The notes under the pieces are model-generated. The model searched no databases. It saw only the letters and a list, made by a program, of their open reading frames with translations, and was not told the DNA's origin. DNA of 62,119 nucleotides, filler included, from Bipalium vagum (lineage: Eukaryota), in the NCBI GenBank assembly GCA_037834085.1. It is 3 parts of 3 records of this genome, joined end to end, with 100 filler letters (N's around TTAATTAATTAA, not from the genome) between each part and the next. Parts side by side here need not be neighbours in the genome. Positions count along the whole stretch, not along the records: positions 46,368 to 62,119 come from JBBMKC010147980.1; 2 more parts are not named here. One strand, written 5' to 3'. Made by a program: the position numbers and the translations under genes. Shown here in pieces: positions 46,368 to 62,119 of the stretch (its first letter is position 1; every line of letters starts with the position of its first letter).

Positions 46368-48318
46368 AAGTTGATTTTTAAAAAAGTTATGACTTCTTAA
46401 AGTATATGGTTATAAACCGCAATTACTCTTTTGGAAACCTAATAGTAACAATATTCTTAAATAATTCAATTTTGCTTAATTTGAAATATATAATCATATT
46501 TCAAACTATTTATGACAAACGATTAAAATAAATATTCTATTTTTTATTATTTATATTATTTCCATTATTTAAATTATTATATTCTTATTTATAAATTTCT
46601 TAATTATAATTTATAATTTACTGTTAGTTTTTTATAAGTAAATATTTTTAATGATTTTTAATATAAAAATTGTTTTTGTTTTATACTAATAATATTAATA
46701 ATTATTATAAAATAATAAATATTTTTGTTTTTATTTTGTTTATTTTTCTTTTTGCCTATTTTAATTTTTATGGGAATTTTTTTGACATAAAAAATAAAAT
46801 AATAAAAACTCAATTAAACTTAATAATAGTATAACAAAAATATAATAATGCCACAAATAACCGAATATTATGATGATGATTGATTGACAACGAGCTTTAT
46901 CTCTTCACATATTAATTCTTACTATTTAATAAGTAGACTAAATAATTAAATTAAGATAATTTCCAAATAAAGTTAAAGGGTCGATCTATCGTTATACAGA
47001 CACACACAACTCCGATTGTTAATAGTGAAGTTAATAGTCATGAGCTAGTGACTACATACTTATTGGATTGAGTTCGTTCAGTTCCCCTTAAAAACTGGTG
47101 GTCATTCTAGAATTTAGCTCATCTGACAACCAAGTGAAGCAAAGCGCCTTTGGTGTGGTTATCTATCAGAAGGTTTGAACATAAAAATTGTTTATATGAA
47201 AACCCACATTTCTTTTAGATTTGTTTTTTATATGATTATCTACATTATATATAAAATATATAATAACAAAATTATTATTATTTGTCAAATTATTTATATT
47301 CTAAATAATGATAAAGTAATGTTTAATTTTAAAGGATTATTTACAAATAGCACCATACATACACACATACAACTTAGCTTCATTGTTATTACTGTAAATT
47401 GTAATTGCACAGTTTTATTTATAAGTAGTATATTCATGATGAAAAAATTAATTTTAATTATTTATATTTACATTTTAAAATTAATAAAGTATAACTTTAA
47501 TAATTATAGTATAACCAAGATGTTCGGAATGCTTAAATCATTAGTAACAATTTTTGCGAATAAATTTCGAATTCAAATGGAAGCACTGAAAATATTTGTC
47601 TACATTAAATATTTTAGAAATAATTGATTAATTGATAACAGAATAAATAATAAAATAAACGATATTTATTTTCACGAGTTCCAAAAAAGATCGATAAATA
47701 TATCGGAAATAATGCGAAGAATAAACAGTCTCAAAAATACAAAACAAAAGATCAGAAATGTAACATCAATGAGAAGTGAAAAAATAAAAAATCATTTTCA
47801 CCCACCAATAACGTATAAACCCAAAAATTGAAATTATAAAGTTCCAGCATTCTTCTACTATTTTGTCATTCATTGAAAATAACCCAAAACCCCAAAGAAT
47901 GCCCTAAAAATCAATCACAATGAAAATATTTCCCAGCGAAAACATTTGTGAAAAATTAATTATATTTTCGCAATTTTGTTGTTCGTGAGTGTGATTTATT
48001 ATTTATTTGTGATGATGTTCAGGAGGCAGGGGTGAAGGAGGCCGGCAAGTAAAAAAACTCGATCTAAAAACAAAAATCTAATGACGAAAACAATTATGAT
48101 TGTCCGAGAAAATGAAGTTAAAAGAAATCAATATTAACGAAACAAAATAATAGGAAAAGTTACAAATCCAAATGATAATAATTTATTCTCTCTTAATATT
48201 AATTTTGTTGATTCGCGGACTGTGCGTGCACACCCAAAACAACGTCTCGGTAGTATAATAATAATATCGATAATAAATATTGATTCTGATCGATACCGGA
48301 AAAATATCGACTACCCCT

Positions 48319-49533
48319 TCACCAGATTCGATTGTGAGCATAGTGTCGAGCCAGGCCCAATGAATAGTTGTAGTCGGTGGGTTTGGAATGGAAAGCTCTG
48401 TTGAAAGGTATTAGTTGTTTCAGATCCTCGTAATGAGGACGATGGTTGCCACTTAACAACGAACTACAAAAATAGAAAGGGATAAATTTTATAAAAAATC
48501 AATAATAGAAAATAATCACAGACCCCGGAAACGAAAGTCAAATGTTATACATAATCATTTTGAATATTATTACCTGTTTCTGTCGTACTGATTTGTATTG
48601 ATGACTTTGGGTAATATCTCCTTGACAATGACGACGTTGCCAGACTGATCGTTCTTCGGTTTGTTCCGCTGGTCTATCGTGAACTGAGATAAGTGATTGT
48701 CATTGGATTCTGGGGTACTGGAAGTGGTTCCAGTACGAAGTTGGTTAAGGTACCATTGATTCTGTCGAGTACCATCGCCCCGGGGCAACAACGGGGGATC
48801 TGAAGATGAAATTATCAATTTATCTACATTGTCGACAATTTTGAGCTTCAGCACTGGTGCTAAGGACAAGAACACCTACCCAAACCCGATGCATTGATTT
48901 TTACCGAAACATTCACCGGTGCCACATTGACATCTCGATCTCTCCGTTCATGGGATTGGTCGGTTGATATGATTTGTTCGGGCGACGCATAAGTCGATTT
49001 CAATGGTACGACCGAAATCGGTGTTTTGCGCTGTTCCAAAAGTCCAACGGTGGAATTCTGTCGACTGAAAAGTGAGAGATGATTAAAGATATATGATATT
49101 TTTATCAATAAAAAAAGTCGAATGAATCCATTACAGCTGATGTCGTGGAACTGCGGAATTGTTCGTCTGAAAAGTGAGCGTGCACAAAACATTTTGTCAA
49201 ACTCAATGAATTCTGTATAGAAATAATTTTACCGAAAATGGAGAAGACGTGCAATACTTGACAGTGTTTCTGGAATTTGCAGTTCTTGAGTCTGAGAATG
49301 GAATTAAATTAATGAATACTTTTTAAAAGCCGTAAAGGTTTTTATTACTCGGGAGATCTGAAAAAAATTTCTGAAACACAACGAAATTGTTAGACTGGCC
49401 AATCGGTTCTGTCAGTTGATAATGCTTAGCCAGAAATGAGAGGAATTTTGTAGAAGGCCGATCAATGGCCAAATTGTAAGGTTTTAAGTTCTCATTCTGT
49501 ATGAATTATTTTATTGTTAACGAGCATTTATAG

Positions 49534-49577
<44 letters not shown>

Positions 49578-51159
49578 ATTAATATAACAATGATACCATG
49601 ATGAGTTTATCAGATAAATGGCGAAAGGTTATCGAGTAAAATGAAACATATTTGATTCAATGAAGTTAATTTGTTAAAGGAAAAAAGTTTTTTGGTTTTT
49701 TAATTAAGAAACTGGGAAAACTCTGTAGGTCATATTAACATTAAGACATACCATACTAAAGAACTTTTACAAAAAACATTATTTAAGCTTCCATAATCTT
49801 TGCAATAGTTTAACAGTTTCATAAATATTCCATCATTTTCTTTTCTCTTTGAGAAAGCCAAACTACCACCATTACCTATAGTATTCATATTTTTCTATCA
49901 GACTCATACTGCAAGATAATAAATCAAAATTTCTTTTCCTTTTATTTGTATAATTATTGATTTAATTTAATTGATTTAATATAATTTATTAACTATTTAT
50001 GTTTATTAATTATTTATTTAATAAATTAATTTATTGTTCAAATTTTAAATTTTTAGGTTTTAAAATTATGAATGTATTGATCTTTATTAAATATTTTTAT
50101 CAATATATCTTTCTGGATTTAAATTTCAGTGTGACACGTTACCAAAATTCAATTAATGAGCTCTTTTTGAGACCATTTACGTTCCTTTTTATTTTAATCC
50201 ATTGATATTTTACAGAAAAATCGGTTTGAGTTGATTACTAAAAAATACTTCTGCAATTGTGCAGGGCTGTCCCCTCACATTTTCTGAAAAATTGTATTTT
50301 TCAGAAAATGTCTCATTGGTCAATATGTTATTCTAACAATTCATAGCTTGCAGTTTTATCAAGATTTGGCAGGTGCAATCAATAAAACGTTGAGATATGC
50401 CCACTGGGAAATGACTAATTCAATTTTTTTTAAAATGATTAAATTTCTAATCTAACGTTTTAGAAAGTATTAATTCATTTTTGATTTTTTCAATCTCTTT
50501 GTTCTTGAGCATAAATCACCGATTCAAAATATAATAAATTTAACGAAACATTCAATGACAACAGATTAAATTCTAATCATTTTTTTAAAAAAAGTAGTCT
50601 ATAATAAGCATTCATTAAAAAACGACACCTTGAGCATAAATTCAAATATCTGCTTCCCGTATCCCTGGCGTTGCTTGGTTTCATGGATGTAAAAGTCCAA
50701 AATGCACATTGGTGTGGTTTCAAAATGATTTCCCATTATGTCATATAGAAATAATTTCTTATATCCAACTTTTAACAAACCTACTACTTCTCCGTCATTG
50801 CTAATTGTTAAACAATAATACTGACAATAAGAAAAAATTAATAACTTATTCGATGAACTATTTTTAGAAATATATAATCTATGATCAGAGTTTTTCAATT
50901 TACTTCCAGTAGTTATTACAACTGGCAGGTTTTGAGCCAGCTTTGAAGCTTTACCCATTTCATCTATGATATAACTTAGTTTTTGTGAATTTTGAAGATT
51001 TCTAAAATTGTAAATTTCAAATTTTACATTTTTAAATAATTGAAATTACTTCACAGATTTTGCATCAACATTGTGATAATAGTAATCTAAATTTGATTTA
51101 TTGTCAATAATTTCAATTGAATTTCTTAAGATATCATTTACATTAAAATTAAATTGCAT
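48319..51159 (-). CDS. ATAT1: Alpha-tubulin N-acetyltransferase 1 (MEC-17)
   Basis: Exons 51159-51050, 51001-50846, 50800-50629, 49496-49349, 49291-49233, 49166-49135, 49064-~48880, 48859-48574, 48463-48319. Motifs [84 protein letters not shown]; ends RHYAHNRIW*. Confidence 0.95.
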
Positions 51160-51589
51160 TTTTAGTAATTTTAAATTTTTTTAACTGATTATGACTTTTA
51201 CTTAGGGAACATATCTTATTTGATACATTTAAACAAATTAATTTGACTTAATAGATCACTAAATTTTCTTTAAATGTTATTAATCACATAAATCCAAGTC
51301 AAGCTTTAATGTTTTATTATTATTACAATAAAAATATAATGATAAAATATAAATTTTTAAGTGAATTATAATATTTTTTATATATTTTAATTTTAAATTA
51401 AGTATGACAATTTTTAATTTGTAAATTCATTTCAAAAACTACCATTTTTTGGAAACATTATTATGTCTGTTATAAAAAATGGCTGAAAGATAAAGTGAAA
51501 TAAAATTATAATCTTAATAAAATTCAAATAACTAAAAATACTCGATTAATTAACATATATATAGTTAATATTTTAAAAATACTTAACTA

Positions 51590-52030
51590 AACATTCGCTC
51601 GATCTAACTCAAAAAATCTAATTGGTTGGATACTAAACGCAGAGCAATAAGCATTTAAGTCTAAATATTAATTTAAAATGCAATGAGAAATAACAATGTT
51701 CACGTCCACAATTTATGAAAAGAAATAATAAAAGAAAAGTGCAACTATTTCCCATGAAACCTCAGTGACGGAATAAACTATCACGTGATTCCGCGAATAC
51801 TTCATCCACCGAATATTTAATTAACGATAATTAACAAAACACGTCGATAAATGGAAAATGGTTCGATAGAAATATAACTCAAAAATCAAATAAATAATAT
51901 TCAGATGATTGAAAGCAAAAATGCAACGAAAATGTGGTGTTTGATAACCCTTGAGAAAAAATTTCCTTTTAAGATCTCCATGGCATATTATAGTCTCCGT
52001 CAATAGTTCACGACCTACATGTCACTATCA
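51590..52030. mobile_element. Possible LTR-retrotransposon integrase fragment
   Basis: Weak resemblance to integrase core motifs (e.g. ...IERMFS on the minus strand); heavily degraded. Confidence 0.3.
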
Positions 52031-52269
52031 AACCCATTGAATTTCTCCAAAATTAAAAAAGAAAGTGTTTAGTAACTTTAATGCTCAGTTTGTCATTCAA
52101 AATCAGAAATTATTTTGTTGAAGTCATGTATCTAAATAGTTTTAGATTGCCTAATGCAATTTCAAAACAATTTATTTAATATGAAAATCATAAAACCAAC
52201 ATCATTTTATATATATTAATAAACAACCAAACAAAATAAGAAAAACTAAAGCTAATAAAAATAACTACA

Positions 52270-52540
52270 TATTTACTCTTTTTGACACATGCCCTTACTG
52301 ATCAATGAAATAAAATTAGTTTTACCTTGATAACCTGGACAAATCGTCTAATCTCTGCTGCATAAATATGAAAAAGTGGTTGTATGGCGGATAGAACACA
52401 ACTTTCCAGCCGAATTCCTCGATTTTCGTCTGACATCTTTGCTTCATGTGGTTTAGAATTATCATGCAGCAATTTTCTCTTTTTTATATCAACTCCTGGA
52501 CGATAATGGACTTTTCATAGAAATCTGCTTGTGCTTTTAA
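52270..52540 (-). mobile_element. Mariner 3' remnant
   Basis: KLLHDNSKPHEA and LEEFGWKVV motifs. Confidence 0.7.
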
Positions 52541-52561
52541 ACTAAAAATGTTCAGCTAAAA

Positions 52562-53269
52562 ATGGAATTCAGAAAATGTAAACAATTTGAGCATATAAAA
52601 CTCATTGAAAATTCTAGAGAAATTCGTAATCAATATTATTCTCATTCGTGTAAACAATGTGTAAGTAATCAAGAAAGAAATTAAGAAGAGAGTTACATTG
52701 AGAAGAGACAAGAAAATGTTAGAATAATAAATCCATCATTAGATAATAAAATTTAATATAGATAAACAAATAACAGATTTTAGATATAGACTAAAACGAG
52801 ATTATTATGTTTATAAAAGTTCATGTAAAGAATGTGAAAAGGAATATGAAAAATAAGAAATCCAATATACAGGTATTATGAAAATCATAGGAAAAATTTT
52901 AGTATATCAAAAGAATTATGTAAAAAATAATCCTGATTTTTTATTTAAACAAAATATTCAAGGAAGTATTTTAAGACTTTTAAAAGAAGGTAAATCTTAA
53001 AATTGATAAATTAATTAGGAATTTTTCTTTTGGAATTTTTTGGAGAATGAAATGAGTTTAATTTTGATAAAAATATGAATTTGGTAAATCAAGGAAATTA
53101 TTGGTACGTTGATCACTTTCTATCAGTTTTATCATTTTATTTATCAATTGAAAAAAATGTTAAAATTTTTAAAAATTGGAAAGGTCTAAGACCAATAGAG
53201 CTAAAAGAAAATTTATCTAAAGATAATAAAATTGATATAACTCTATTTATTTTATCAAAGGAAAGCTGA
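52562..53269 (+). pseudogene. Virus-type HNH endonuclease, putative homing endonuclease, decayed
   Basis: MEFRKCKQ...HSCKQC...SSCKEC (CxxC pairs), then EFLENEMSFNFDKNMNLVNQGNYWYVDH...SFYL...KIFKNWKGLRPIELKENLSKDNKI. This resembles the MxWxNYGxxWHIDH...NWxNLxP....NLSK pattern of HNH endonucleases of large DNA viruses. Internal stops and frameshifts. Confidence 0.75.
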
Positions 53270-53290
53270 ATATTTTATTAACTTAAAACA

Positions 53291-53543
53291 TGCAACACCT
53301 TCAAATTGCGGGAATCTCCTAAAGTCTTCTTTTACTATTTCATCGGAGAAATCTTTTGAATGATCTCAGGTAATGACTGATCTCGGTAGTAAAAACAAAG
53401 AAGAATATATGGAAAATCAGCAGCTAAGATTAGAATATGGAGAAGGTTCAGAGACTGAACAGAGGTATACATGAGAAATCTAATCAATTTCAATGATTTC
53501 TTAAGACATAGTCTAGCTTGAATAGAAATAATCAAGAAGTCTG
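53291..53543 (+). ncRNA. Group I intron ribozyme core, IC1-like
   Basis: P AAATTGCGGGAA (53303-53314), Q AATCAGCAGC (53415-53424), R GTTCAGAGACTG (53446-53457), S AAGACATAGTCT (53503-53514). P3, P4, P5a/b/c, P7, P8, P9 and P9.0 pairings can be drawn; omega-G at 53543. Confidence 0.92.
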
Positions 53544-53760
53544 CCAGGAACAAATATTGATAACGTTTCGAAAATTATGAAGACGTTTCAGAAAATCCAA
53601 AAAGTAATTGATTATATTTTGATCCATATTTTGGAAAAGGATTAAAAGATGAAATTTTAAATAATTTAAAATATGATAATTTAGATAAATCTGAAAATAA
53701 AGAATTTAAAGAATTATTACAAAAATCGAGTAAGAATAAAATTAAGATTGTAAAAGAAGG
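53544..53760 (+). pseudogene. 3' exon of the intron's host gene (Polinton-like, PLA2-motif candidate)
   Basis: Starts CCA GGA ACA AAT ATT GAT (PGTNID), then after a frameshift RFENY...SN*LYFDPYFGKGL. Resembles the parvoviral-type PLA2 (Y/C)GPGT...KR motif and the GLYLxPY..GxGL motif of Maverick proteins. Confidence 0.5.
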
Positions 53761-54974
53761 AAATTGTGGGGACTCCCAGGCAAACTTCCAGCGATTTCAG
53801 GAGACGAAATATAATCCTTTTAAACATTTTCATGAATCTAGACATTTTTTGTGATTCTGTCAACCATTTTCTTTGTGTGATCTTTTATTACCTTTTGCAT
53901 GGAACAGAAATATTGTAAAAAGCTTTTTATTGTACATGTGTATAAAATATATGTTAAATAAATTATGTAAATTATTATTGATAAGTCCTGAAGCTATAAA
54001 TCATAAAATATAAAATAAATAAATAAAATTAAAATAATAAGTAATATTAAAATTAAAATAATGCTAAATTTAGAAAGTTCAGCAAAAATAATTACTAAAA
54101 ATAAAAATAATATTCTATAACCGAATAAATAATAAAAAAAATAATGTATAAAAAATTAAAATTAGTAAATTTAGATTACTAAAAATAATTAAAAGACAAA
54201 AAATTTTAATATAAATTAAACTGTCTATACTTATAAAACTCAGCAAAAAACGAGAAATAATTACAACGACATTAATTAAACGTCAACTAGAGTCTACATC
54301 AAATCAGAAACCGAATCCCAACCAGTCATTTAAACACAATTCACTTGATACGAAAATATCAAATATCGACTAGACTGTCAGAAATCGGATACAAAGAGAG
54401 AAAAGGAAAACTATATAAATTTGGGCAAAAATAATCACAAAAAGAGTGAGAAATTATAAATTCTCAGAGGAGGAAAACGACCGAAAAGGAACCATAAAGG
54501 AACGACGATAAAGAAACAAATTGAATAAACAGAAGAAGAAAAGGACTCAGACGAACAATCAAAGATTCAAGTCTCTAAAATGAAAATTCCAAAAGAACAA
54601 TCTCGAAAATCTTTCCGAAGGAAAATTAATAGACCGTATTTCGATTCAGAAGTATTACAGTCTAATCCGCAGATATAATATCCTTAAGTAATTATTTTGA
54701 TATTTATAAATTTTTAACAATCAGTAGTATCAATTTGATTTCAAGTTGAATATTACGATCATCTTTAAAATTAGCATGGATTATACAATTGGATAGATCC
54801 CCAAACGTCAAGTAGGACGGAGAAGCGATTTTTTATTTCGAGGGCTCTTTAAGCTAAGATTGCAAAGAGTATAACCTGATATCTTGAAGTTTAACCGGGA
54901 CTTATCATTAATAATAATATTGTTCTTATTTGTTCAACAAAGGTGTTAAAACTAAGTGTTAGGTTCAAATAAAT

Positions 54975-55046
54975 TGGAGACACCGGGATTCGAACCCGGG
55001 ACCTTTCTCATGCGCATGGACTGCTCTACCGCTGAGCTACGTCCCC
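54975..55046 (-). tRNA. tRNA-Ala(CGC)-like gene with disrupted anticodon stem (probable pseudogene)
   Basis: GGGGACGTAGCTCAGCGGTAGAGC A GTCCA TGCGCAT GAGAA AGGTCCCGGGTTCGAATCCCGGTGTCTCCA: A and B boxes, D and T arms and the G3:U70 Ala determinant are intact; only 2 of 5 anticodon-stem pairs form. Confidence 0.8.
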
Positions 55047-55369
55047 CATTCATTTTTAATCTAAACTCCTTACACTAAGTATCAATTATTTTTAAATCTA
55101 TATTAAAATAAATTTTTCAAAATCATATTAATTTGTTTTGATTTGTCTTAGTGATTAAAATTTTCATTTGGTAATATTCACTTTCAAATATTGGTTTTGT
55201 TTCATTTACACGCAAATTACAGTTACCTCGTCTATTTAAAAATTAAACATAAATAAACGCAACCTTTCACATAAACCAAACGTTACACTCTCTAAATCCT
55301 TCTGAAATAATAATATTAACAAGCGAGCCACGTAAAGTTTTGTAAGATCATCATAAAATCAAAAAACTT

Positions 55370-56060
55370 AACAAAATGGTTTATATTTTGACCCTTATGA
55401 AAAAAATTAAATATGTTTCTAAATATCATATTCAAAAATATCTCAATTTATGACTTTTAGAATTCGTTAGAATGCAACCAAAAATTTTGATATAATTTTA
55501 AAATTTTCTTACTTAAGCTTTTAGGAATAACTTTTTCAAAAAATGATGAAAAATTTATAATTGTTGATGAAATTTGTTGTGAAAGATGTGAAGATATCCA
55601 TACTGAAAATTGTAAGATCTGTGATTTAATTCATTTTTAATTCTTTCTCATAACTTTATATAATTCTGATTTAGAAAATACATATGAATAATTAAGTTTT
55701 AAATAAGAATCACCAATGATTATTGTGAAATTTTAAATTAAATTTGATCTATTTTCTGAATAAAATATTTTATTTTTTAAAAATGGAAGCATCTTTACAA
55801 AACGTATCAAATCTTTTATCTAAAAATGCTCAACACTGTTTATTATAGAAAGTAAAGGCTCAGACATATCATTTAAGTTAGGTACACCACTAAATCTTCA
55901 TCCAAATTATAAATATGAATTACCCTAAATTTATTTTTCAACTTATAATTCTATATTTAATATTAATGAAAAAATAATATAATATATCTAACTGTTACAG
56001 ATTCAAAAGGAAACAAAGTATCTCGAAAAATAAAGATAACTTCAGCAGCATTTGGGATTT
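55370..56060 (+). pseudogene. Polinton-like remnant including minor capsid (penton) N-terminus
   Basis: QNGLYFDPY near 55372-55400; a short Cys-rich fragment ICCERCEDIHTENCKIC; from 55783 MEASLQ.../FIIESKGSDISFKLGTPLNLHPNYKYELP*IYFSTYNSIFNINEKNN, matching the penton N-terminal P.L...YE..L....YNSI.NI...NN pattern. Confidence 0.6.
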
Positions 56061-56733
56061 TTGATATCTTCATATATTGTGAATGGATTTAAAATATTTT
56101 ATAAAAAAAAATTATAAATAATTTTATAAAAAAATAATAAATTTATAATAAAAAAATTTATAAAATATTTATTTATAAAATATATATGTAGATACGGTGA
56201 TATATAAAATCTCCAAATATATAATTTAGCATAAAATTCTATGAAAGTTTGAGTAGAAATTTCATCTTTATAAGAAGTAATACATCAAGTTTTAAAGAAT
56301 CTTAATTTATATCTCACATCTTCGAAATTTCATTATTATCTAGAATTAACTCTACAAATACAGAATACGTATTTTGCGAGTTCTAAGGCATGGTATTTTA
56401 CAAATAATCTTAATGTCTGTAATTTCATCGAAAGTAATATTTTCATTGTTGTAAAAATAAATGTAAAACAAAAACATCAGTGTTACATAATCCCCATATA
56501 TACTTTATTATTTATTATTAATAAATCAACCGTTATTTAATTGTATGAAATACTATTGTCTTTAAGAACTCTCATTTGATTTTAACTTTAAACTATTATA
56601 TTTATTAAATTAAATCATCAAATTTGTCAAAGTTAATTATGAAAGGAAAGTTAATTTATAAAATTGATTTTCAGATAAATCAGATAATTCAATTTCCTGA
56701 TTTCATAACTATAGTAATTGAATCCATCTTCAT

Positions 56734-59700
56734 ATGAGAGAAATTGTGCACATTCAAGTAGGTCAATGTGGCAATCAAATGGGTGGAAAAGTATTTCTTT
56801 GATGTCTTAAATCTTGCGATATAATATTTTATTATTATACTTAAGTTTTGGGAGGTAATCTCTGATGAACATGGCATCAGTGTGGATGGATTTTATAAAG
56901 GTGACAGTGATTTACAGCTGGAAAGAATATGTGTATATTATAATGAAGCTACTGGTTCGATTTTTTCAAAACTTTTATAAATAATAATATCTTTTAAGGT
57001 GGAAAATTTGTTCCTCGTGCAATCCTTACGGATTTGGAACCTGGAACAATGGACTCCTTAAGATGTGGAGTAGTTGGAAACCTGTTTAGACCTGACAATT
57101 TTATTTTTGGCAGCACAGGGGCTGGTAATAATTGGGCCAAAGGACATTATACAGATGGAGCTGAACTAATTGATAATGTCATTGAAGTGGTTAGAAAAGA
57201 ATCAGAAAATTGTGAATGTTTGCAAGGATTTCAAATCATCCATGCGTTAGGTGGAGGAACTGGAGCAGGAATGGGAACACTGTTGATTAGTAAAATTAGA
57301 GAAGAGTTTCCTGATCGAATTGTTTGTAGCTTTTCATGTGTTCCATCTCCAAAGGTACCATGGTTAATTGGAATAATTAAAAGAATTTTTATATCATTAT
57401 AATATTGAGATTGTTAAAATTCTAAAATTTGGTACTTAAAAATAATTATTAAAAAACATAATACGCAGCAATTAAGTAATAATTATTTTTATATTTTTCA
57501 TCATAATTTATTTTTATTTTTATTATTATTTAATAATTTTTTTATAAAAATTGTATTCTTAGTTAAATAATTATTTATATTTATTATTTATTTATATTAA
57601 TAATTACATGAAAACCAAAGTTTCTCAGATTTCGAAAAAAGTAAAAATATGACAAGAAATCATAAATGGAGTTGTAATTGCGTGACCTCCATGATGAAGA
57701 AAAATAAACAATTTAATATGTTAAAATACATACCAAATAAAATTTCTGGAAAGCATTATTATTTCATTCTCAAAGATAACTGAAACCGAAACTTAACACT
57801 TTCAAGAATTTATAGTCATATTAAGACGAATACGAGTTGCAGAGCTCTTTTGAAGATTTTGAAATAGCGGTTATCATTACCAATAAGAGAAAAAATAGAA
57901 ATCAAAAGAAATACAGAAACAATGAAACCCATACAAATAAGAATTACTAACCTGCTTCATCAAATAAAGTATTGAGTTTAAACTTAATGGTTAAATGTGA
58001 ATGGGTAAACAATTAATGGTTTCATCTTAATTAAATTGCTTCTTTGGACTGGTATTTGAGTGACGAAAAACCCTTTTGATAATTTTTTTTAAAAATCAAT
58101 TCATTATGACAATCTATGAAACAATTAACGTTGTGTGATACCAAGCAAATCCAATATATCAATACCCAAATAGAGTACCTGAGATTCAAAAGAAATTTCT
58201 ATTTGGTATTATATTGGCTTAATAATAAAAAAATTTTAAAGAGTCAATATTGGACAAAGGAAAAGTGACAACTTTAATCAAAGCAATCTCAGTAATTATC
58301 TAGGTCTTTTTGTCATCTTATAGGTAAATTCTTTATCCCATCTTCATGATAGTGATGGACTTTGATATAAAAAGTCCAGGGCAGTTTTGATATCATCCTT
58401 TGTTGAAAATTGTCTACTACTTAGGTAATTTTGTTGAAATCTGAACAAGTGATAATCTGAAGAGGTCATTTCAAATGAGTATACAAGCTAAGGAAGAAGT
58501 TACCATTCTAAATAATTAACTTTTTGAAATCACTCTCAAGTTTGGAGTCGAGCACTGTCATGTCAGAAATGTCATTCATTCTGTTGATCAGGTCTGGAGT
58601 TGCATTTTTCGATTCAACTTGGAGCTATCCTAATTGATCAGAGTAGACTTTTGCTTTGATAAACATGTTTTTGGCAATAACTCAAAATATATTACACTTC
58701 TATTATCCGATGAGGGTGAAGTGGCTTCTGACTCGGTGTTAGTTTTCCTTCTTTTAATATTAACCTGGCACATTCACTATTCTTTTTCAAAAGTTTTCTT
58801 TCTTGAATCTTGAAACAAAAGATGAGCAAAGCAACAACCTGTCATGTTTGGTTTTTTCACTCAACCAATGAAGAAACCAAAACCCTTTTCACTTAATTAT
58901 TTTATTTAGTGAAGATGAATTTCAATGGTGGTGTGAGAGACTTGCAGAAAATCCAATATTGTGATAATTGTTTAAAATAATTTTTAAATTAGTTTTCTAA
59001 TAAATTATATTACTTGCCTTTTGAACTTTACAAGCCAATATTATGAAGTCCTAAAACCTTCTGAATAAATAATTCGTTAGCATATTAATCAATACTATTT
59101 CATTCGAAGCAAAATTTGTTCCAAAGCAATTTGAATGAGTAAAACATGAAAAAATAATTACATGAAAAAAATAAGCAGTATTTTAAACAAATATTTATAA
59201 AGAGCATAATATAAACTTACAAATGATATAATTTATTGATCTAAACTTGACCTAAATAAAAAAACATCAAAAACCTGCATTTATATTGCATCGACCTAAT
59301 ATTACAGATTTTTAAACTAATTACTGAAATAAAAATCAAATTTTATAGTAAACTATTAAATTTGACTCGCTTATTACCATATCATTTTTAATAGGTCTCA
59401 GATGTCGTCGTTGAGCCATACAATGCTACCTTATCAATCCACCAATTAGTTGAGAATTGTGATGAAACATATTGCATTGACAATGAGGCATTATATGACA
59501 TTTGCAATCGAACCCTTAAATTAACCAGTCCTACATACGGTGATTTAAACCACTTAGTTAGTGCAACCATGTCAGGAGTCACAACATGCTTAAGATTTCC
59601 TGGTCAGTTAAATGCAGATCTGAGGAAATTAGCTACCAACATGATACCTTTTCCACGACTTCACTTTTTTATGCCTGGATTCTCTCCTTTAACAAGTCGT

Positions 59701-60192
59701 CATTCTCAACCATATCGTTGTTACTCTGTTCAAGATCTCACTCAACAAATGTTTGATTGCAAAAATATGATGGCGGCATGTGATCCTCGTCATGGTAAAT
59801 ATCTTACAGTAGCAGCAATGTTTCGTGGTAGGATGTCAATGAAAGAAGTGGATGAACAAATGCTAAACGTCCAAAACAAAAACAGTGCCTATTTTGTTGA
59901 ATGGATCCCAAATAATGTGAAGACTGCTGTTTGTGACATACCACCAAGAGGATTGAAAATGTCAGTTACATTTATTGGAAATAATACTGCTATTCAGGAA
60001 ATATTCAAAAGAGTTTGCGAGCAGTTTTCTGCTATGTTTCGCAGACGCGCTTTCTTGCACTGGTATACCGGAGAGGGGATGGATGAGATGGAATTTACAG
60101 AGGCTGAATCAAATCTTAATGATCTTATCAGTGAATATCAACAATTCCAGGATGCAACGGTTGATGATGAAATACAGGCAGCCGAAGCCTAA
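56734..60192 (+). CDS. TUBB: Beta-tubulin
   Basis: Exons 56734-56790, 56846-56954, 56999-57354, 59395-60192: [35 protein letters not shown], through [19 protein letters not shown]. Confidence 0.99.
58280..59301 (-). mobile_element. Decayed mariner in beta-tubulin intron 3
   Basis: Terminus TATTAGGTCGATGCAATA at ~59300; HDSARL and [10 protein letters not shown] motifs at ~58430-58565. Confidence 0.75.
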
Positions 60193-60879
60193 TAATTTAA
60201 TGTATAATTTCAACAGATGTCTTTAATTTATAAAAACCTCATTTAATGAGAATTTATTGTATATATAAAAACAGCTACTTAAAATGTTGCTTAATAAAAT
60301 TCATCTAAAAATTAATTTTAATAATAATTTCATGAAAATGATATTATTTTTATATTTTCAATATAAATATTTGAAAATTATATTCATTATTCAATTTTGT
60401 TTAATGACATCACTTTACGTGATTAAATTTTTAATATTTTTTAATTTTTAAAAAAATATTTTGTACACTATCAAAATAATAAAACACTATAAAAAAGATT
60501 AAGATTAAAAAGTCGTAATATTTTGGATAAATATATTTTTGAAGAAATAAACTAGTCTAAATATCAAACGAGATGTAATAAAGAATAAAGGACGATATTT
60601 CGCTAATAAATTTCAGTAAAACTGTTTTAAATGGTTACAATTTCTAAGATTATTGAAATTCAACATCAAATATTATTGAAATCCCGATTGGGATATGAAT
60701 TAAAATTTAATTCTGTTGCTCCAATAATTACATTAATTTAATAAATTATGCAAAATAATACTGAAAAGAAATTTTTTAAAAAATTATATTAAACATTATG
60801 GAAAAATGAAACAAGAAATAAAGATATGAGTAAAATAATTTTTACTATAGTTAAAAGACAAAAAAAGTCAAATATGTAT

Positions 60880-61960
60880 TCCAAATTACAGTTTTTCTTA
60901 AGGAAATTTTAATCAAAGGAGTTCCTGAAAGTTGGAACATCTTTAAATTAAGAAAATCATTAGCTTTTAGATCTTAACATACTTTACAATTTTTATAATA
61001 TTTTATGTAAGCAATAACATTTTGAAAAAGGTAACATGATTATTTTGTAAATGTCGGGAACGTCATTTACGGATTCTAAATCAAAAACTAATCCAAATCC
61101 TGGAATTGGTTTAAAATATATATGGAGCAAGTCCCCATAGTGGATGACTTCAACCAATATCTTTATTTTTGATTGCCTCAAGGCCAAGGTAAAAGAATAG
61201 GAGTGGACAAGATCCTTGACGGGGTTTTGAAAGATTTCCAGCTGGTATTCAAATCCCAAAATATTCTTACATTCTAGGCTTCTATTCCACTTTAAAAATA
61301 GAGTGGTGGATACCCAAACACTGTCATTATCTTTGGCTAGACCGGGTGAGGGGAGGAAAAAAGGGTGGGATTTGATGAGCTTGTCAGAAAGACACTGAAA
61401 TCAATAACCGACACGACATTGATCCAAAGTGCAAATATTTCATATTTGTATACGGCATTTGGTGATTTCGGTATAGTTCCTGGGAACGATGAGTACCAAG
61501 TTTGCAATGTGGTGCAGGGACTAAGATTTCTGACGATCAATGAACAGCAATGCAGGTCACTCTTGACCCAATCCATATTTAATAATATAAAGAAAAGGTT
61601 CCGTATAGAAATCTCGGTCTAACATTGAGATGGCTCAGCGATAAGCTTGATCTTAATGCTCAGAACACATGGTGGACCACGCCATGGGTTTCCGTGAAGG
61701 CTCTCCGATCCATAAGTATAGAATACGAATTCACTACTACAACAGGTGAATGAGTCATGTGAGCCAAGGTTGAGTTTTTGGTTGTTCCTCAAAAGAGCAT
61801 GCAGCGCATTGGTTTTTCATGATTAAATCACGGAGCAACAATTTGGCGCTTAAGTTTTGTCCTCTGAACATTGTGAAGGGGCGAGACATCCAATGCAGAC
61901 TCTGCAAAACTACAGTGGTGTTGGGTTAGCCAAGGACACATCCCTGTACACCCTTGTAAA
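60880..61960 (-). mobile_element. Decayed LTR-retrotransposon pol (RNase H / integrase zinc finger) remnant
   Basis: GC-richer decayed coding region; EVIHYGDLLH...NVIAYIKYYKNCKVC resembles the integrase HHCC region. Many stops. Confidence 0.5.
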
Positions 61961-62047
61961 AATTATATGTTAGAGACCGCAATAGGGTCTAGATTAGTTA
62001 TAATTATTATAAATTAATTATTAATACCGCAAAAGGATCAAAGGTAA

Positions 62048-62048
<1 letters not shown>

Positions 62049-62119
<71 letters not shown>
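62049..62119. repeat. (AAT)n microsatellite
   Basis: Pure AAT run to the window end. Confidence 0.95.

Follow-up and report, generated by a model that had tools for sequence, protein, structure and literature searches.

A stretch of Bipalium vagum DNA of 62,119 nt (assembly GCA_037834085.1), referred to here as the window and drawn at positions 46,368-62,119 from JBBMKC010147980.1, carries what can be read with good confidence as a dead chromosomal group I intron at the FTG-PGT motif of a Maverick/Polinton gene, one that likely spread among such elements by homing via a predicted HNH nuclease. Copies with the intron and copies with an empty site occur in the same assembly, and together they likely record the spread of a selfish intron. 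The copy in the window is an ordinary dead fragment of this group I intron, which is found throughout a family of animal Maverick genes. The features that would identify a group I intron, i.e., a P3/P7 pseudoknot core, the G-site in P7, a U·G pair in P1, and P9.0 with a terminal G, are all present in the sequences of the family.

The last bases of the intron (...CTG) reach position 53543, and the exon opens at 53544 with CCA GGA ACA, i.e., Pro-Gly-Thr, which is the exon start after omega-G given by an earlier reading of this DNA, the sequence-only reading. Alignment with sister copies shows likeness from about 52507 and none upstream of about 52505, and the 5′ exon, the 5′ splice site, and the guide sequence are absent; since the 5′ splice site is lost, the window copy is dead and cannot splice. 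The mariner-like remnant at about 52400-52490 gave a best tblastn E-value of 2e-5, against 3e-4 for the best of 200 shuffles. The sequence-only reading was right about the missing 5′ exon and the decayed mariner, but the span that it gave, 52270-52540, was too wide, as 52507-52540 belongs to P2 and P2.1 of the intron. The intronic ORF in 52562-53269 contains numerous stops and frameshifts, P6a is partly deleted, and P4 has one mismatch, while the G-C pair of P7 is kept. RF00028 of Rfam matches 53241-53535 with 39.3 bits (E 4e-8), below its 50-bit cut-off, and a scan of the whole window at cut-off returned a tRNA alone; the cut-off is passed by each of the four sister copies tested, with 66-100 bits.

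On the other side of the junction, the 3′ exon of the window copy ends after about 58 bases at a deletion (about 53600-53612), which juxtaposes the LYFDPY piece of the next gene and thus explains why LYFDPY had been placed downstream. The motif indeed lies at 53612-53629 with an echo at 55381-55398, but it is not part of the PLA2 exon: the LYFDPY ORF occupies a separate frame, and in sister copies it lies 1-2 kb downstream of the PLA2 exon, after the integrase. The fragments at 54690-56080 match other copies of the Maverick/Polinton element, as the tie to one element family had suggested, although the penton fragment named near 55378 found no support in Pfam or the PDB. A repeat with a tRNA-like part splits these fragments. 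Its 118-base unit is likely a young SINE-like repeat, in which the anticodon stem is unpaired and to which ARAGORN assigned no isotype; the best 40 of 1916 candidate copies are 88-99% alike over the matched stretch, and unrelated flanks were found in 10 of 11 fetched loci. The tRNA-like gene is not part of the Maverick/Polinton element.

Table 1. Features of the intron-bearing element fragment and its surroundings in the window.
Feature	Position	Strand	Basis or remark
Host exon, presumably alpha-tubulin acetyltransferase (by motif)	50599-51045	-	Host gene flanking the element
Mariner-like transposase remnant, very decayed	52397-52490	-	tblastn to mariner-like frames; adjoins intron
Intron 5′ part still present: P2 hairpin (52508-52526), P2.1 5′ arm and extension (52530-52556)	52507-52556	+
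Broken intronic ORF, predicted HNH/endonuclease VII-like, in P2.1 loop	52562-53269	+	CxxC pairs; W-Y-V-D-H at 53102-53116
3′ arm of P2.1 extension and P2.1	53265-53293	+	Complementary to 52530-52556; shuts the ORF loop; pairing read from sequence
Predicted group I core P3-P9.0 with P5abc	53297-53543	+	RF00028 match; comparison with sister copies
Core element P	53303-53314	+
Core element Q	53415-53424	+
Core element R	53446-53457	+
Core element S	53503-53514	+
P9	53518-53535	+
Terminal G	53543	+
3′ exon start (PGTNID...) of PLA2-like/integrase ORF	53544-53601	+	Truncated by deletion
LYFDPY... C-terminal piece of separate ORF	53612-53764	+	After integrase in sister copies
More decayed element DNA	53760-54219	+	75% like a sister copy
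Scattered same-family fragments, including second LYFDPY and tentative penton piece	54686-56079	+	Split by tRNA-like repeat
118-base repeat unit	54957-55074
tRNA-like part of repeat unit	54975-55046	-
Beta-tubulin gene with long intron	56998-60192	+	Host gene flanking the element

The family is large. A DNA search of the assembly with the window excluded scored 40 of 1159 candidates, at 75-82% identity. Intron 3′ ends occur at no fewer than 96 places (32-base pattern with up to 3 mismatches; reversed control 0) and empty FTG-PGT junctions at no fewer than 363 (looser junction pattern; control 0); since the two counts come from different patterns, the statement that about one site in five is occupied is a rough one. 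The empty alleles are colinear across the insertion site, and a strict junction pattern found 9 exact matches, all 9 of which read FTGPGT. In the FTG-PGT motif of a PLA2-integrase gene, the intron thus separates the Gly codon from the Pro codon. Among 32 recovered intron 5′ ends, the 5′ exon ends in GGT in 27 and in T in 31, although these ends were found with a pattern that contains GGGT with 4 mismatches allowed, which favors T at position −1. The sequence-only reading had predicted insertion at G|PGT of the calcium-loop motif of a parvovirus-type PLA2 in a Maverick-like gene and a 5′ exon ending in GGT, and it had suggested a search for intron-less and intron-containing copies; it would have been abandoned had 5′ exons not given GPGT or had the 3′ exon matched a cellular gene, and sister 5′ exons do give GPGT while the 3′ exon matches PLA2-integrase.

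The intron was also encountered in a soil sequencing run (RNA only by guess), where a contig carries it at the same site with 34 other letters and 16 gaps in 448 relative to L009:1388-1819; a related carrier has so been sampled elsewhere. That contig crosses the intron unspliced, no joint was present in the run, and empty-type neighbors were. A second run, of a kind not on record, has joints that carry the letters of empty alleles, and none of the joints shown (15 of 235 and 15 of 55) is an exact splice product. The joints and intron contigs in these two runs carry no weight on splicing.

The host gene encodes a PLA2-like domain fused to a retroviral-type integrase, as read from profile matches and motifs. 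The 3′ exon of a sister copy (L017) matches the PLA2-like profile PF08398 with 20.9 bits, just below the 23.9 cut-off, and retains the HD dyad, and the rve integrase profile PF00665 follows in frame with 35.9 bits, above its cut-off of 32.6; the PLA2-like profile is the one that the sequence-only reading had suggested. A homologue search returned 179 proteins, and many among the at least 120 listed, including Hydra and Mya entries, contain both PLA2 and integrase. The aromatic-x-GPG-T/N motif is uninterrupted in 53 of 122 protein homologues, and 47 of those 53 also have the HD motif. PF03175 (PolB) has 75 matches in the assembly, and PolB-like remnants lie on two of eight contigs tested, downstream and on the opposite strand, both contigs being intron-bearing; this link to PolB is weak because the copies are fragmentary. 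Polintons/Mavericks are defined by PolB plus a retrovirus-like integrase in the accessible text of PMC8502044, and the integrase and PolB remnants fit that definition, which places the gene in the Maverick/Polinton family. In viral and metagenome contigs, the PLA2-integrase query found no relatives save one unrelated-looking match. An adenain-like protease (GPGTHW), which the sequence-only reading had kept as an alternative host, was rejected, as the 3′ exon is PLA2-integrase; the ORF that we take from its motifs to be the protease of the family has GIHW and is located elsewhere. Candidate protease, ATPase, and penton ORFs are likewise labeled on our assumption from motifs, and profile and structure searches gave these labels no support from Pfam or the PDB. 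Other PolB families, with open frames of 1242 and 941 codons, are found in L128 and L129; Maverick-like families younger than the intron-bearing one so exist in the assembly.

It is scarcely credible that a virus or protist contaminating the sample, rather than animal chromosomes, was the source of the DNA with the intron. Foreign DNA is present in the assembly, given that it holds three different cox1 of which one is unreadable with the flatworm code, and the closest introns found are viral; against this, the window copy is flanked, with no N gap, by another host exon and by a beta-tubulin gene that contains an intron and is 84-89% like named animal tubulins, other copies adjoin cellular genes and retroelements, and each copy shows its own decay and its own interruptions by mariner and other insertions. 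AAA encodes Asn in the code of rhabditophoran flatworms and echinoderms. Among the cox1 sequences L050, L051, and L052, the two best matches read a conserved Asn from AAA and the third does not; a prey animal and a second flatworm sequence may thus be represented in the assembly. The beta-tubulin exon is animal-like and gave no placement finer than "animal". The host is likely a flatworm, judging from the AAA-as-Asn cox1 and the AT-rich, mariner-laden DNA.

The ribozyme fold was evaluated over 58 named pairs in 28 copies, where 94.6% of 1585 cells are paired, against 33-49% in slid controls, a contrast that is inflated because the structure was drawn from the same 28 sequences. P3, P7, and P9.0 are paired in 93.5%, 98.2%, and 96% of cells, respectively, across these 28 copies. 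Thirteen cells are changed on both sides (none of 500 shuffles was as high), six of which are one P5a pair that is G-C in 19 copies and C-G in 6 and flips between subfamilies; the covariation is mostly due to one subfamily split. Within the 5′ domain, there is no covariation beyond chance, as 425 and 328 of 500 shuffles were as high. P1 is 95% paired, and a U·G pair stands at the 5′ splice site in all 16 aligned full introns, which agrees with the earlier expectation of a splice site that follows a U. P10 is 73% paired, with two firm G-C pairs in most copies and 2-4 pairs overall, the third pair being confined to copies whose exon opens with CCA, the window copy among them. The guide sequence proposed by the sequence-only reading therefore appears in P1, which pairs with the GGT-ended 5′ exon, while the pairing that it proposed with CCAGG amounts to just the 2-4 pairs of P10. 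Subgroup IC1 is marked by P2.1, P5abc, and an extended P9 region; with P2.1 and P5abc present and P9 a single hairpin, the intron appears IC1-like through P2.1 and P5abc.

Both self-splicing and homing are predicted from these data. The RNA in active elements would fold and splice itself out, with P1 setting the 5′ site at the U·G pair and P9.0 and the short P10 setting the 3′ site, and excision would restore the reading frame of the host gene. Sister elements with an empty site would be cut or nicked by the nuclease and would acquire the intron during repair; the transfer would bring along the two exon bases that P1 needs. The nuclease would then have been lost repeatedly, and the integrated copies would have decayed.

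The intronic ORF is predicted to encode an HNH/endonuclease VII-like homing nuclease. Its least broken version matches the endonuclease VII family of PHROG (PHROG 1035, E 5e-11), and Pfam HNH gave no match; its nearest protein-atlas clusters are viral, one with HNH in 13% of its members. In pairwise comparison (E 1e-12 and 9e-17), it matches an ORF carried by a group I intron that interrupts a viral RNA polymerase gene, and the W-H-x-D-H and downstream Asn motifs are common to the Bipalium ORF and this viral one (L176). The ORF has 151 matches in the assembly, and an intron landmark accompanies 16 of the 22 best new nuclease loci, although every copy examined is broken and no unbroken ORF was found among the copies read. 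Nuclease-bearing, nuclease-stub, and nuclease-free introns occupy one and the same site: among 27 distinct full-length introns, counted with duplicates removed, 3 are 889-1083 nt long and contain the nuclease ORF, 2 are 405-423 nt, 12 are 349-363 nt, and 10 are 302-329 nt. These size classes reflect the loss of the nuclease ORF. A second, more distant tier of HNH-type ORF (30-45% identity; L015:1947-2228, L023:1746-2265, and L200) is free of intron landmarks and may represent a nuclease that the element encodes outside any intron; in L015 and L023, an intron precedes it by about 1 kb.

Regarding origin, a 22-base word from the R region of the core occurs in 12 viral contigs, 8 with RNA polymerase large-subunit genes (an identity backed by Pfam in one of the 8) and 4 with a tandem intron array. 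The latter four (L167, L173, L174, and L175) apparently represent the same 3 kb stretch with six or seven tandem group I cores. A homologous intronic ORF is present in one of the 8 RNA polymerase intron contigs (L176). The intron and its nuclease likely derive from a giant-virus-like source.

We infer homing from the mixed exon trees and from silent differences in the exon bases. The 5′ exon comparison kept 49 of 60 entries after a homology filter, and the table upstream of −12, which is ungapped and confounded by indels, was unused. At exon position −1, T occurs in 27 of 28 intron copies and in 1 of 21 empty copies, and at position −4, G occurs in 25 of the 28 and in 4 of the 21; both are synonymous sites, and both are paired in P1. 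Across the first 45 positions of the 3′ exon, intron and empty copies show no difference. On trees of the near and far parts of the 3′ exon, for which rows with less than 80% coverage of the region were dropped (41 and 22 of 57 kept), intron status is unclustered, with 12 changes versus 14.0 when shuffled for the 41 rows and 7 versus 7.7 for the 22, and starred branches force at least 3 changes in status on the first tree and at least 2 on the second. Resolution of the trees is poor (stars on 3 of 38 and on 1 of 19 inner branches), so the mixing could also stem from recombination or noise. On the 5′ exon tree, mild clustering by status is seen (12 changes versus 16.2; 12 of 500 shuffles; 0 starred branches), which is too weak to call co-conversion.

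The same data bear on whether the intron is ancestral and the empty sites arose by repeated precise loss, via reverse transcription of spliced RNA, with no homing in the lineage. Such a history could also leave empty and occupied sites mixed on the trees and most introns without a nuclease, and one empty allele (L038) does have the intron-type ACG GGT junction. Precise loss, however, would leave GGT, usually ACG GGT, whereas a final T is seen in just 1 of the 28 empty alleles fetched, and the first 100 listed empty junctions include 8 with GGT, 3 with ACG, and none with both; moreover, the 53 motif-bearing homologues are uninterrupted at the protein level. The near absence of intron-type bases from empty alleles speaks for gain, with either short co-conversion or P1 selection, rather than for precise loss. 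An ancestral intron is therefore disfavored, and we regard it as quite improbable.

Another proposal, which can coexist with homing, is that the intron acts as a shield: Gly-Pro codons always spell GGNCC, and by splitting this word the intron would protect its carrier from a restriction-like nuclease of the family that would cut empty rivals. A separate ORF with a G-I-D...F-E-L-K motif, which we take to be of PD-(D/E)xK type, has 92 matches in the assembly. Among 16 spaced palindromes, element DNA is most strongly depleted in GGNCC, with 5 seen versus 30 expected when the junction site itself is excluded (flanks, 131 versus 120). Weighted for redundancy, this becomes 0.67 versus 2.6, with no site common to copies in 12.3 kb, whereas another PolB-bearing stretch of higher GC has 5 sites in 3.5 kb. 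The weighted deficit (0 shared versus 2.6 expected), however, falls short of significance (Poisson about 0.07), and CGNCG likewise has none; furthermore, at least 363 copies keep an intact GGNCC junction, one of them (L119) 1.9 kb from a nuclease remnant. In 53 PLA2-integrase homologues from elsewhere, uncorrected for relatedness, Gly-Pro is scarce outside the motif (6 versus 63 Pro-Gly), so the scarcity need not be specific to this Maverick family.

The one family hit of the separate ORF was to Eco47II, at E 0.93 in one of four copies, with nothing significant in PADLOC, PHROGs, plasmid, and PDB searches and no relative in viral contigs or plasmids. Its predicted model has a pLDDT of 40 and no fold match, and an Eco47II/Sau96I-type profile found no match genome-wide, although the control profiles were silent too. 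A comparison of contig lists placed the ORF on two contigs with the intron and one with an empty site. Relative to the integrase, its remnant is upstream in certain contigs and downstream in others, with the relative orientation unchanged (L119, L112, L113, L109, and L058/L059), hinting at tandem or circularly permuted copies. The GGNCC shield is weakly supported and, in our estimate, unlikely. The broader picture in which Maverick introns self-splice in the animal nucleus and serve provirus warfare, with HNH homing and GGNCC hiding forming a methylation-free self/non-self system, is similarly doubtful.

The nearest published counterparts of the intron are found in viruses and in nuclear rDNA. 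Polinton-like viruses (PLVs) of protists (Rhodomonas lacustris, Paulinella, and Desmodesmus) carry group I introns (PMC12220804), and the two systems share an intron of about 300-380 nt in a protein gene of an integrating Polinton-type element of a eukaryotic genome. In the available portion of that report, however, the hosts are protists only, the intron interrupts a short ORF that precedes the capsid gene, and no nuclease encoded by the intron is identified. The Bipalium intron, in contrast, occupies a PLA2-integrase fusion gene in an animal, where alleles with the nuclease, without it, and with an empty site occur side by side. For Bodo saltans virus, the accessible part of PMC5871332 describes RNA polymerase genes of a giant virus that contain group I introns with homing endonucleases. 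Giant-virus RNA polymerase introns (IMG/VR loci L165-L176) contain the identical 22-base R-region word, and they and the Bipalium intron both interrupt conserved motifs of viral protein genes; the differences are that the ORF of L176 lies inside the core region rather than in the P2.1 loop, that the host genes differ, and that the viral introns reside on large viral contigs, in contrast to the chromosomal copies in an animal. An HNH endonuclease within a group I intron is also encoded by PhiPA3 (gp210), a model for the cutting of intron-less competitors (PMC11620839, in part); like the HNH-type ORF of Bipalium, gp210 is encoded within a viral group I intron, although PhiPA3 is a bacteriophage and the activity of gp210 was demonstrated experimentally, while the Bipalium nuclease is predicted from sequence.

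The host gene resembles adintovirus PLA2X and Maverick PLA2 (PMC8502044, as far as its available text goes) in its parvovirus-VP1-type PLA2 with a GPG loop and HD dyad within an animal PolB/integrase element. Adintovirus PLA2X has a C-terminal pX domain, whereas here PLA2 is followed in frame by integrase and is split by the ribozyme. The GxGLY-type ORF is separate from the PLA2-integrase ORF, unlike the PLA2X arrangement, and the PLA2-integrase fusion is common to many database proteins, including the Hydra and Mya entries.

Nuclear group I introns are described as restricted to the rDNA of fungi and protists, with His-Cys nucleases, in the accessible sections of PMC9223047. The intron shares with the Tetrahymena-type rDNA IC1 introns of that account the P1 U·G pair, P2, P2.1, P5abc with a GAAA loop, the P7 G-site, and a nuclear location, and differs from them by its protein gene, HNH-type ORF, and single P9 hairpin without P9.1/P9.2. 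Among animals, the portion seen of a 2025 database (PMC11835236) lists group I introns in placozoans, corals, and sponges only, mostly mitochondrial, and Polinton-like insertions have been reported in flatworms with introns not considered in the text available (bioRxiv 10.1101/2025.04.19.649669). Supplementary intron tables aside, the full-text literature, in which subscription journals are largely absent, yielded no published case of a group I intron in an animal Maverick or elsewhere in the nuclear DNA of animals; the literature compared also includes the accessible parts of PMC11296320, bioRxiv 10.1101/2023.08.22.554363, and 10.64898/2026.10.13.758929.

Because two silent exon bases set occupied alleles apart from empty ones, spliced RNA would be distinguishable from transcripts of empty alleles, and with empty, nuclease-bearing, stub, and nuclease-free copies in one genome, the homing cycle could be dated or modeled from a single family. 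The implication would be that a ribozyme intron worked in the mRNA of an animal DNA virus or transposon, and about a hundred chromosomal copies in a protein gene of a likely flatworm would extend the limits given for nuclear and animal group I introns in the available text of PMC9223047 and PMC11835236.
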